A stretch of 63,449 nucleotides of DNA, taken from a bacterium. Its GTDB lineage: Bacteria > Chlamydiota > Chlamydiia > Chlamydiales > SM23-39. The notes beneath the pieces are model-generated. The model made no database searches. It was given only the letters and a program-made list of their open reading frames with translations, and was not told the DNA's origin. A program made the position numbers and the translations under genes. Position 1 is the stretch's first letter, and each line of letters opens with the position of its first letter. Below are positions 1-2,530 of the stretch, one piece after another. The stretch is from positions 1 through 63,449 of the forward strand of contig JAJXVT010000004.1 in assembly GCA_021781995.1 (NCBI GenBank), in the 5' to 3' direction.

Positions 1-2302
1 GCGCGCCAGCAGCGCTATTTTGGCTTGCCGTCTGCATCAAAGAGCCTAGCGATGAAGTAACCGTAGTACTCATTCCTGCGGGCCAATGATAAGTCACATT
101 AATCTGAGAAATAGCATTAAATACATTATTATTCCAAGTATTTGAGATTGAACTAAATTGAGGCAGCGAATTGACTACAGCAGTTGCAGTGTAAAGCGTA
201 TCTACAAATTGCATTGCTTGAGATGTAGTTAAATTGGTGCTCCACTGCTGCGCCTGCTGCAGAAGCGGCGTACCATAAGTATTGGTCATCACGTTCAATA
301 AGTTCGTCGTATTGGCAAGACCGCCGATTTGTATCTGAGCTGAGTTATCAAATGCCACCATCATAAACAAAGACAAAACCACTTCGGGATTGTGATAAGT
401 ACCGATCAAATGACTCACAGAAGAAGTCATATACGACTGTCGCACTGTATTGACATCCATAGAAGAGAAAAAAGTGTCCATGCCCCCCGTAATCGAAGAA
501 GGACTTGCTAAATTGGAAATGTAATCATTGATGAACGGTTGATACGCTGTATTAGACCAGGCGTATACGGAAGTAGACTGATCTGGATTGATAAAGGTCA
601 CAGATCCTGTACCGTTATTGGCAAAACCAAAAGTAGTAGCTAAAGCATTTGTCTGGCTCGATACCGTAGCAATTGCATTCAAAATGATTCCGACTAAACC
701 GGTATGAGCACTTGCATTAAAGTACTTTTGCATTTGTTGCAACCAGGCACTAGCGGCCGCCGATCCCGTCAATGTAGTCGTTGCTCCTACAGGTGTGTAA
801 CCATTGAACATTGCATAAACAGTTCCTTGCTGCAATATCGTCGTCATTTCGGCAGCACCGCTTGTACTGGTAAGGCCAGAGCCGCTCAATAAGCTTTGAA
901 CCTGTGAATTATTCAGAACTTCATGTTGATTGAGGATCTGCAGATACCCTAAAAAATTTAACTTTGCAGACAAAGAATTAGGATTTTGAGCTAAGTAAGT
1001 GAGAAATGAGTTCAATTGATCGTAATAAGGCATCCCGCTTGCATAGCCGCCCGCCAAGCCAGGCCATATCGCGGCGGGTCCATCGCCGGGCAATCCATTT
1101 GGCAATACGAACGCGCCTCCTCCAGGAATTTGAGCGTTAGCTATAATTTGCGACAGTAACGGATTTGCAACCGAGTTTACTACCGTCTGCATTTGCGCAT
1201 CGGCAGCCGTGGCCTGAGACATAATGCTCGATATCATTCCCAATCCACTAACTGCAGGAAGAACATCCCCACCGTAAACATAGGGATCGCTTATAGAAGG
1301 CATATACACCTGTCCGGAAATCACCTGTTCTAAAGTTAGAGACGAAGCTCCGGTATTCAATGAGCGCGCGCTGATAAGCGGCATAGATGTGTTCACAACC
1401 GCATTGAATACATTGGGATTCCATGAATTTGCAAAAGGAGTTAGCTGCGGCAAAAATTGAAAATACGCAGTTGCGGTATACAATTGTTGTACAAATTGAG
1501 CCGCGACACTAGCTGTTGTACTCAGTGGCGAACTTAAAGTACCAATTAACCCTGATAAACCACTGGTTAACGACTGCACCTCTTGCAGCATACTCAATGT
1601 AGCGCCCGAAGCCGTTCCGCCGCCGATCGGAAGAGCGCTAAAAAAGGTGTCATTTTGAGCAGAAGCAGTCGTCGAGGAAGAAGTTGGATTAGCAATAAAT
1701 GTATTATTCACAAACGAATTAATTAAAACCTGATTGATCGATTGTTCTGAAGAAACATTAAACAATAAAGGCGAAGCAGCGGTTGGATGCCAATAATAAC
1801 TCGCCGTATTGCCGTCGGGCATTTGAATGTTGACAGAACCCGTTCCGCCGCCTGAAAATCCATACGCTGTAACCAAATTGGGCAATTGCGTATTTAAAAC
1901 ATTTGCCACGACACTATTGATTTGCTGCGCAACGCTGGCGCCAGCTCCCGCTGTAGAGGGAAATAAGGTTTGCATTTCAGAGAGCCAAGCCGATGCCGCA
2001 GAAGATCCAGACGGATAAGCCGTTCCCGACGGAGATGTATAACCGTTGAACATCGCAAAGACTGCACCTTGCTGGATGATCGCATTCATTTCTGTCTGAA
2101 AATTCGAGGTAAATGTCACAGCGCCCGTCGAACTATTGACCGAAGAAACGATCCCAACGTTTTGTAAAAGCGTTTGAATATTCGGATCACTTAAAGCGCC
2201 ATTTTGATCCAAAGTATTCAAATAACCAAGAAAGCTAATTTTTTCAGCTAAGGAGCTCGGATTTGCCTGCAAGTATTGCAGCATTTGGTTGAGCGAATTA
2301 TA
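1..2302 (-). repeat. Intragenic tandem duplication, unit ~1.27 kb (~425 aa), two diverged copies (2302..1029 and 1028..<1)
   Basis: Copy A: YNSLNQMLQYLQANPSSLAEKISFLGYL...QQGAVFAMFNGYTSPSG...SAWLSEMQ...QQLYTATAYFQFLPQLTPFANSWNPNVFNAV. Copy B: YYDQLNSFLTYLAQNPNSLSAKLNFLGYL...QQGTVYAMFNGYTPVG...SAWLQQMQ...DTLYTATAVVNSLPQFSSISNTWNNNVFNAI. The two align along their length. Confidence 0.7.
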
Positions 2303-2530
2303 AGCAGTAGATGTTGTCGTGCCGGCAGTCCAAATATCGGCAAGCCCTACCTCTGTGGCCGAAGTACCTCCGGTCGCGGTATTCAAAACGGCGTCATTGT
2401 TTTGCGCGATCATGTACGCTAAATACGCCAATGCCGAATCGGTAGAAGAACTACTACCGCTAAAAGACAAGCTACTAGGGTTGGTTTGCACGGTTGGGTT
2501 TGAATTTCCAGGCTGAACAGATCCGCTCAC
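1..2530 (-). CDS. Large S/T/N/Q-rich repeat protein, N-terminal 843 codons. The ORF continues past the left window edge and is absent from the supplied ORF track because it has no stop inside the window.
   Basis: Manual reverse-complement translation from GTG 2530 is stop-free to base 1: VSGSVQPGNSNPTVQTNPSSLSFSGSSSSTDSALAYLAYMIAQNN...GSLMQTASQNSAAGA. AAGGAA lies 4 nt upstream and an in-frame TAA five codons upstream. Alternative ATG start at 2413. No competing ORF above ~65 aa in these 2.5 kb. Confidence 0.75.
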   Translation of the reverse strand, partial: MSGSVQPGNSNPTVQTNPSSLSFSGSSSSTDSALAYLAYMIAQNNDAVLNTATGGTSATEVGLADIWTAGTTTSTAYNSLNQMLQYLQANPSSLAEKISFLGYLNTLDQNGALSDPNIQTLLQNVGIVSSVNSSTGAVTFTSNFQTEMNAIIQQGAVFAMFNGYTSPSGTAYPSGSSAASAWLSEMQTLFPSTAGAGASVAQQINSVVANVLNTQLPNLVTAYGFSGGGTGSVNIQMPDGNTASYYWHPTAASPLLFNVSSEQSINQVLINSFVNNTFIANPTSSSTTASAQNDTFFSALPIGGGTASGATLSMLQEVQSLTSGLSGLIGTLSSPLSTTASVAAQFVQQLYTATAYFQFLPQLTPFANSWNPNVFNAVVNTSMPLISARSLNTGASSLTLEQVISGQVYMPSISDPYVYGGDVLPAVSGLGMISSIMSQATAADAQMQTVVNSVANPLLSQIIANAQIPGGGAFVLPNGLPGDGPAAIWPGLAGGYASGMPYYDQLNSFLTYLAQNPNSLSAKLNFLGYLQILNQHEVLNNSQVQSLLSGSGLTSTSGAAEMTTILQQGTVYAMFNGYTPVGATTTLTGSAAASAWLQQMQKYFNASAHTGLVGIILNAIATVSSQTNALATTFGFANNGTGSVTFINPDQSTSVYAWSNTAYQPFINDYISNLASPSSITGGMDTFFSSMDVNTVRQSYMTSSVSHLIGTYHNPEVVLSLFMMVAFDNSAQIQIGGLANTTNLLNVMTNTYGTPLLQQAQQWSTNLTTSQAMQFVDTLYTATAVVNSLPQFSSISNTWNNNVFNAISQINVTYHWPAGMSTTVTSSLGSLMQTASQNSAAGA

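Follow-up and report, generated by a model that had tools for sequence, protein, structure and literature searches.

The first 2.5 kb of the 63,449-nucleotide stretch of chlamydial DNA analysed here (contig JAJXVT010000004.1 of assembly GCA_021781995.1; hereafter, the window) appear empty in the list of open reading frames (ORFs) supplied with it, and the question is whether a gene is nevertheless present and, if so, what kind of protein it encodes. We found that the ORF at positions 1–2530 of the minus strand is the 5′ 90% of a real, functional and previously unannotated gene. Judging from profile searches, its product belongs to an undescribed protein family restricted to Chlamydiota. It is probably, though by no means securely, a lineage-specific, fused and triplicated derivative of a chlamydial protein that is a candidate tip- or translocator-class substrate of type III secretion, for which we infer secretion, location and role.

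A reading of this DNA made from the sequence alone (the sequence-only reading) had proposed a stop-free minus-strand frame of 843 codons beginning at GTG 2530, and machine re-translation of positions 1–2530 bore this out: the 843 codons (2–2530) contain no stop, and base 1 of the window is the first base of codon 844. Given the base composition of the minus strand, a run of 843 codons would stay free of stops by chance with a probability of about 2e-20, and no competing ORF of at least 80 amino acids (aa) was found at positions 1–2530. The frame is closed upstream by a TAA at 2548–2546 (minus strand), and the GTG start codon (2528–2530, minus strand) is the first start thereafter; a Shine–Dalgarno-like AAGGAA, read from the sequence, lies 4 nt upstream of it (2535–2540, minus strand). 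This start is preferred over the internal ATG 2413 because the N-terminus is homologous to that of a paralog, the third described below, which begins with MSGSIQPGNANPTVQ and whose ATG is homologous in position to VSGSVQPGNSNPTVQ.

The same locus was found on two public contigs, namely a 108.7-kb ENA contig (L001), which shows 100% identity across the 6.8 kb that it has in common with the window, and DAIEDZ010000002.1 of assembly GCA_027457375.1 (L002), with 99.95% identity (6 mismatches in 12 kb). On both of them the full-length gene ends at residue 933, 90 residues past the window edge, and the window thus carries a partial coding sequence for residues 1–843 (1–2530, minus strand). The earlier expectation of a giant, much longer protein was therefore not upheld, since the protein is complete at 933 aa on these near-identical contigs and the repetition goes on as two separate paralog genes. 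Together they form a tandem array of three paralogs of 933, 953 and 926 aa with intergenic gaps of 22 and 8 nt; paralogs 2 and 3 are located past the window edge, and the three genes are intact in two assemblies. The ratio of nonsynonymous to synonymous substitution rates (dN/dS) among the paralogs is 0.08–0.23, and dS is saturated (>1) except in the C-terminal third of paralogs 1 and 2. The low dN/dS combined with saturated dS indicates that these are old genes under long purifying selection, not debris. The C-terminal thirds of paralogs 1 and 2 (L002 12044–12800 versus 14928–15684, just left of the window) differ by a dS of 0.3–0.6 and a dN of 0.02–0.04, and because this dS is far below that of the remainder of the genes, it suggests gene conversion within the tandem array later than the duplication.

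The product had been described as rich in S, T, N, Q and A, nearly uncharged, and devoid of a signal peptide or transmembrane segment, and the calculated values agree with this description. S, T, N, Q, A and G together account for 59% of the residues (Gly for 8.7%), D, E, K and R for only 4.1%, and there is no Cys. The Kyte–Doolittle maximum over 19-residue segments is 1.54, and since none reaches 1.6, neither a membrane segment nor a hydrophobic core of the Sec type is predicted. The first 35 residues include 12 Ser and one charged residue. The Ser/Thr/Asn-rich N-terminal region (aa 1–66; 2333–2530, minus strand) is predicted to be disordered except for one helix at aa 29–50, with an AlphaFold predicted local distance difference test score (pLDDT) below 50 for aa 1–32 and 43–66, and it is a candidate secretion-signal and chaperone-binding region.

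A tandem duplication of a unit of about 425 aa had also been noted. The duplication is real, with aa 77–378 matching aa 503–807 at 35% identity (BLASTP, E 3e-43), but, as comparison with the relatives described below indicates, the repeat is a head-to-tail fusion of two whole ancestral genes of about 500 aa, of which the N-terminal copy is degenerate. Unit 1 (aa 77–378; 1397–2302, minus strand), delimited by BLASTP against unit 2 and by gaps in the family alignment, lacks about 45–65 residues of the most conserved core; the region (...YKNPE...GGLAxTTNxLTxxTNxYATPLL) is mostly deleted, and the central helix is 24 aa long in the AlphaFold models versus 50 aa in unit 2. The junction (aa 379–502; 1025–1396, minus strand) appears to consist of the decayed C-terminal tail of unit 1 and the N-terminal leader of unit 2, as suggested by weak alignment to the C-terminal helices of the family and to the leaders of single-unit proteins, and low-confidence helices were predicted in it at aa 429–466. 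Unit 2 (aa 503–807; 110–1024, minus strand), recognised by its HMMER profile match to relatives of about 500 aa and by its AlphaFold model, is an intact family domain. It contains the most conserved family motif, GGLANTTNLLNVMTNTYGTPLL (aa 736–757; 260–325, minus strand; consensus GGLAxTTNxLTxxTNxYATPLL), within the 50-residue central helix. The conserved C-terminal domain starts within the window (aa 808–843; 2–109, minus strand), and its remainder, aa 844–933, ending ...GGGLMQLIAAIVKGFSVTS, lies past the window edge.

The family was revealed by an exhaustive hmmsearch against 1.84 billion representative proteins, which gave 36 matches at E ≤ 1e-3; of these, 27 also passed E ≤ 1e-10 and 13 passed E ≤ 1e-30. 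With few exceptions the matches are single-unit proteins of 440–600 aa covering only query positions ~470–941 (E 1e-126 to 1e-10), and one 1506-aa relative carries three units. Since the relatives match only the second half of the query, the ancestral form was a single-unit protein of about 500 aa. Thirty of the 36 matches were inspected in clusters; all are unnamed or annotated as "hypothetical protein" and come from metagenomes or metagenome-assembled genomes (MAGs), one being labelled Chlamydiota bacterium. Besides the core motif, the window protein shares with the family the tail ...GGGxxQLxxxIxxNQxS, which is present in the full-length protein just past the window; in unit 1, both the motif and the tail are missing or degenerate. 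The charged residue content is 7–20% across the family, the multi-unit members being extreme with 4–5%; Cys residues are very few or absent, and the Kyte–Doolittle maximum does not exceed 1.58 among the family members tested, with no segment at or above 1.6.

Searches with other tools agree with the earlier view that this is a genuine gene of no recognisable family. The window protein and its paralogs had no match in Pfam (E ≤ 0.01 for the window protein) or NCBIfam, none of 24 relatives had a convincing Pfam match, with LcrV, IpaD-type and EspA families absent even at E ≤ 1, and a search of PDB sequences with profiles of the paralogs and the 24 relatives found nothing. A word-indexed homology search, first with the protein and then with a 32-sequence profile, found nothing beyond the gene itself, one of its paralogs and one or two further sequences, because the low-complexity composition swamps the word index. 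No confirmed locus was obtained by scanning species-representative genomes with the paralog alignment. A degenerate DNA pattern (GGL-10 codons-TNxY[AG][TS]PLL) gave 0 matches in species-representative genomes, a result that does not imply absence from cultured species, since the pattern is too strict for most members.

The genomic context of the relatives provides the main indication of function. Eleven related loci were read, and in eight of them, each on a distinct contig (L003 and L007–L013), a single-unit family gene is part of a conserved block with the order [~130 aa, charged helical][~250–290 aa][family][DUF4096, ~95–125 aa][~150–200 aa][~395–445 aa, several hydrophobic segments][~285 aa][larger protein]. 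The genes of the block are co-oriented, with intergenic gaps of 1–72 nt, and the beginning of the same arrangement was seen in L004. The block abuts injectisome genes, including those for a CesT-type/scc4-like chaperone, cdsD, cdsE (DUF5398), cdsF (the 82-aa needle protein), cdsG and the ATPase gene cdsN; CdsD of the related loci carries the chlamydia-specific CdsD_PD1, CdsD_PD2 and CdsD_C domains. The family gene is placed two genes upstream of the ~395–445-aa protein, which has several hydrophobic segments (Kyte–Doolittle 1.9–2.5) and for which SseC is the Pfam family matched by the largest number of copies, yet below threshold (2/7, E 0.009). In other type III secretion systems, a comparable position is that of a hydrophilic tip or translocator-class substrate, and the gene orders lcrG-lcrV-lcrH-yopB-yopD and sseA-sseB-sscA-sseC-sseD parallel the block of the relatives. 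As a rule, one operon encodes the tip protein along with the hydrophobic translocators and the chaperone that serves them (PMC4760673), which would place the family in a translocator-class position. The sequence-only reading had guessed at either a type III substrate or a surface/adhesion protein; the former part is backed by the single-unit relatives located beside cdsD, cdsE, cdsF and cdsN in eight contigs, and no specific support was obtained for an adhesin.

The block itself deserves attention as a set of about eight unannotated genes between clpP-clpX and scc4-like/cdsD/cdsE/cdsF (L009 7878–15945; L008 8812–16497; L011 8668–17686; L012 8789–16994; L013 8600–15962). Its members include proteins of ~130 aa (charged and helical), ~260 aa, ~180 aa (very acidic) and ~430 aa (hydrophobic and faintly SseC-like), and none of the set has a Pfam or NCBIfam assignment. 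The upstream ~260-aa gene was considered as a possible relative of the family on account of a short YLGYL-like motif in common, but was rejected as hhalign was negative. Very large unannotated ORFs were also observed in or beside the block, namely L013 3296–8443 (1715 aa) and L011 15221–17686 (821 aa).

Structure prediction with AlphaFold gave two half-models. The model of residues 441–933, made with AlphaFold2 and a 32-sequence alignment (pLDDT 82.8; predicted template modelling score 0.79), begins with an N-terminal helical domain and a beta-hairpin; a helix of 50 residues and one of 46 residues follow, separated by a small helix/hairpin (alpha/beta) insert, and a short terminal helix closes the chain. 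The model of aa 1–500 is weaker (pLDDT 69.6), consistent with the disordered N-terminus and shortened central helix described above. Foldseek searches with both half-models against PDB, and with unit 2 against viral models, found nothing at E < 0.09. The only matches with raised probability were two axial proteins of the flagellar export system, the hook-filament junction protein FlgL (9go6_S, 0.66) and flagellin (5maw_D, 0.60), which are not significant (E 0.29–1.7, template modelling (TM) score 0.19–0.40) and give a hint of an axial-protein-like helical architecture, no more than that. Identity with flagellin or FlgL was rejected on these values and on the absence of Flagellin_N and Flagellin_C Pfam matches, and the equally empty Foldseek comparisons with PDB and, for unit 2, with viral models (no match below E 0.09) led us to reject a phage structural-protein origin.

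Among known proteins, the family is most like the hydrophilic translocators and tip proteins of the SctA type (LcrV/PcrV, IpaD/SipD/BipD, EspA/SseB) by gene position, solubility and predicted helix architecture, although it fails sequence-profile membership. Like these proteins, it appears soluble, without a membrane segment or Sec signal, and its relatives are encoded beside needle genes, upstream of an SseC-like protein and with a small gene in front. The predicted N-terminal helical domain, ~50-residue helix, small alpha/beta insert, ~46-residue helix and conserved extreme C-terminus are likewise reminiscent of tip proteins. The differences are that a family unit has about 500 aa versus roughly 190–330 aa in tip proteins, that the window protein fuses two units and exists as three copies at a distance from the secretion locus, and that no solved tip structure, with globular domains on either side of a long antiparallel coiled coil, occurs among the top 50 Foldseek matches, with nothing at E < 0.1 in this comparison of a predicted model. 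The identity of the chlamydial protein that forms the needle tip or serves as hydrophilic translocator is still only proposed, even in pathogens (PMC4760673).

Other secreted proteins resemble the family in fewer respects. With FlgL and flagellin it shares richness in A, S, T, N, Q and G, very few or no Cys, long terminal helices and, as inferred for the family, export by a type III pathway; in contrast to them, its charge content is far lower, its neighbours are injectisome genes, and no flagellar genes are nearby. The proteins of the chlamydial translocon operons (CopB/CopD; CPn0810/CT577 and CPn1022/CT863, which have been proposed as their hydrophilic partners; CT584) belong to the same phylum and have a translocator-type operon setting; unlike CopB and CopD, the family has no hydrophobic segments. 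No Chlamydiaceae or UniProt-sourced proteins were present among the 30 hmmsearch matches inspected, the proposed tip candidates CT577, CT863 and CT584 not having been directly compared in sequence. A hydrophobic translocator (SctE/SctB; CopB/CopD; SseC) was rejected in view of the Kyte–Doolittle maximum of the window protein and the absence of an SseC match, and a polymorphic membrane protein or autotransporter was rejected since the window protein has no Autotransporter match and its model is helical. Harpins (HrpZ, HrpN), which the type III systems of plant pathogens secrete as helpers or translocator-class proteins and which are cysteine-free, acidic and of low complexity, are similar in these features of composition and in having no enzymatic domain. 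The window protein differs in being less glycine-rich, in its well-ordered predicted helical fold, in the absence of a profile match and in the type of host.

Several observations weigh against assigning the window protein to the tip/translocator class. The family has no Pfam match to LcrV, IpaD-type proteins or EspA, and no significant structural match to known secretion substrates was obtained (best Foldseek E 0.29, TM score ~0.2–0.3). No LcrH-type chaperone is recognisable in the block, which holds several further hydrophilic low-charge proteins, any of which could be the tip, or none. Neither a secretion gene nor a further family copy was found in the 63-kb window, so that the window locus is away from injectisome genes, and the 182-nt gap (2531–2712) upstream of the gene contains no ~130-aa small gene or remnant of it. 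A fused protein of two or three units fits a stoichiometric tip subunit awkwardly. Finally, the family sequences finish in residues (e.g., QLINQIINNQISR) similar to those with which CdsF, their cognate needle protein, ends (NSVINNAVRNQKTQ), yet hhalign aligned the family tail with CdsF over 11 columns only (E 0.026, probability 1.9%), and needle mimicry by the C-terminal tail is a weak lead, not evidence.

The history of the gene can be outlined as follows. The ancestral form was a soluble, mostly helical protein of about 500 aa, encoded beside needle and basal-body genes and upstream of the hydrophobic, faintly SseC-like protein. Two whole copies fused head to tail, after which the N-terminal copy lost part of the core helix and the C-terminal tail; the fused gene was then triplicated in tandem, and the array, together with DUF4096, occupies a second site. 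If the tip/translocator assignment is correct, the disordered Ser-rich N-terminus may direct the unfolded chain to the injectisome, and outside the cell the intact C-terminal unit could fold into a helical bundle built on the two ~50-residue helices. The conserved C-terminal tail (...GGGxxQLxxxIxxNQxS) would then mediate its assembly, either at the translocon or at the end of the needle or close to it. The degenerate N-terminal unit would be an exposed, fast-diverging module, and the extra unit and the paralogs would serve to diversify the exposed surface. Within the translocator class, it is unlikely that the family is the tip protein itself. One could go further and hypothesise, again with only a small chance of being right, that the family is the SctA-type needle-tip or needle-extension protein of a large group of uncultured chlamydiae, with a fold so far absent from the solved tip proteins and with DUF4096, a domesticated transposase fragment, as its constant companion in the operon; the three fused paralogs would then be interchangeable, diversified tips by which a single secretion machine is adapted to different hosts or host membranes. 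The conserved block of about eight unannotated genes at cdsD-cdsF in many uncultured chlamydiae, with a confidently modelled, unmatched helical protein at its centre, offers concrete candidates for the part of the chlamydial injectisome that lies outside the cell. The window locus would be an example of whole-gene fusion and tandem triplication of such a component, accompanied by a domesticated fragment of an IS5-type transposase.

There is a minor but real chance that the protein is instead a type III effector acting inside the host cell, neither needle-associated nor of the translocator class, with the three paralogs representing an expanding effector family. The array lies away from the secretion locus, like most effector genes; the tandem paralog expansion, the fast divergence of unit 1 and the extreme composition would suit host-interaction proteins, and the lack of a significant fold match to tip proteins points the same way. 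However, the canonical relatives are fixed in an apparatus-adjacent block by the SseC-like protein across very divergent genomes, which is more typical of early or middle substrates, and no enzymatic or eukaryote-like domain was detected with Pfam. An ordinary effector would still constitute a new phylum-restricted family of secreted proteins, its wider importance being modest.

A protein of the surface or envelope, or an adhesin, that leaves the cell by some pathway other than type III secretion, with the adjacency to secretion genes in the relatives being coincidental or regulatory, is distinctly improbable. Low-charge, repetitive compositions rich in S, T, N and Q do occur in surface proteins too, and two genes near the window locus, those for a GT4 glycosyltransferase and a lipid A acyltransferase, are related to the envelope. 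Nevertheless, no Sec signal, lipobox, membrane segment, or beta-barrel or autotransporter domain was found, although two genuine autotransporters were recognised elsewhere in the window (E 1e-23); moreover, the model is helical rather than beta-rich, and synteny with cdsD-cdsF is seen in eight contigs. Least probable by far is that the array is decaying, non-functional duplicate DNA, open by chance or of recent origin: the C-terminal tail and the most conserved core are gone from unit 1, the accompanying ~130-aa gene is missing, and a terminator-like hairpin instead of a consensus promoter directly precedes the gene, but the three paralogs are intact over 926–953 codons in two assemblies, the saturated dS (>1) with dN/dS of 0.08–0.23 reflects long-acting selection, and a three-unit version has been retained at this site in a related species (L005).

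Having set out these alternatives, we return to the locus of the candidate translocator-class protein. The window array and its DUF4096 gene occupy the second site, between cdaA-ybbR-GT4-lpxL and rnt/nusB/murB, and the three-unit gene of the related species is at the same site in L005. The ~130-aa small gene precedes the family gene in the relatives and also in this syntenic L005 locus. The neighbouring gene in the window (2713–3069, minus strand) is a stand-alone 118-aa DUF4096 gene (Pfam DUF4096, E 4e-19), corresponding to the N-terminal part of an IS5-type (insertion sequence 5) transposase without a DDE domain. DUF4096 directly adjoins the family gene in every locus extending far enough, that is, in the window, L003 (11518–11862), L005 (4186–4545), L006 (3649–4017), L007 (10464–10757, not called as a gene), L008 (11667–12029), L009 (11591–11962), L010, L011 (11642–12019), L012 (11771–12121) and L013 (11453–11737). 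It is located downstream of single-unit genes and upstream of the relocated multi-unit genes, and its copies are 55–70% identical across genomes versus about 25–35% for the large family protein. Its conservation suggests that the DUF4096 gene has been domesticated as a conserved part of the operon, perhaps with a regulatory role, and is not insertion sequence debris.

Putative regulatory sites were also examined. A strong terminator-like hairpin with an 11-bp stem and a T run (2675–2701, minus strand) is located between the DUF4096 gene and the large gene, and no consensus promoter was found in the gap 2531–2712. The sole consensus match upstream of the pair is a promoter-like TTTACC-17-TATAAT (3114–3142, minus strand) upstream of the DUF4096 gene, a match to consensus that is not functional evidence.

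The assignment of the source organism to chlamydiae, made earlier, is supported by RpoB (45546–49316, minus strand), which is 91% identical to MAG proteins labelled Chlamydiales bacterium, Parachlamydiales bacterium and Chlamydiae bacterium RIFCSPHIGHO2_12_FULL_44_59. The top 120 RpoB matches include no cultured species, which points to an uncultured, Parachlamydiales-like lineage; the chlamydial placement is in keeping with the V-type ATPase operon and the two autotransporter genes that the window carries. Some MAG proteins 86–91% identical to the window RpoB carry the NCBI labels Verrucomicrobia or Verrucomicrobiota bacterium and probably represent mis-assigned chlamydial bins.

Other genes of the window are of interest in their own right. 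Two proteins of about 755 aa (21618–23876, minus strand, and 25677–27953, plus strand), encoded divergently around two smaller genes, have C-terminal autotransporter beta-domains (E 1e-23 each) and are Pmp-like surface candidates. A 409-aa protein (29975–31204, minus strand) with a eukaryote-type Ser/Thr kinase domain (Pfam Pkinase, E 4e-11) adjoins the V-type ATPase operon, and a 602-aa protein (55512–57320, minus strand) has weak HEAT-repeat-type matches (NblB-like, E 3e-15).

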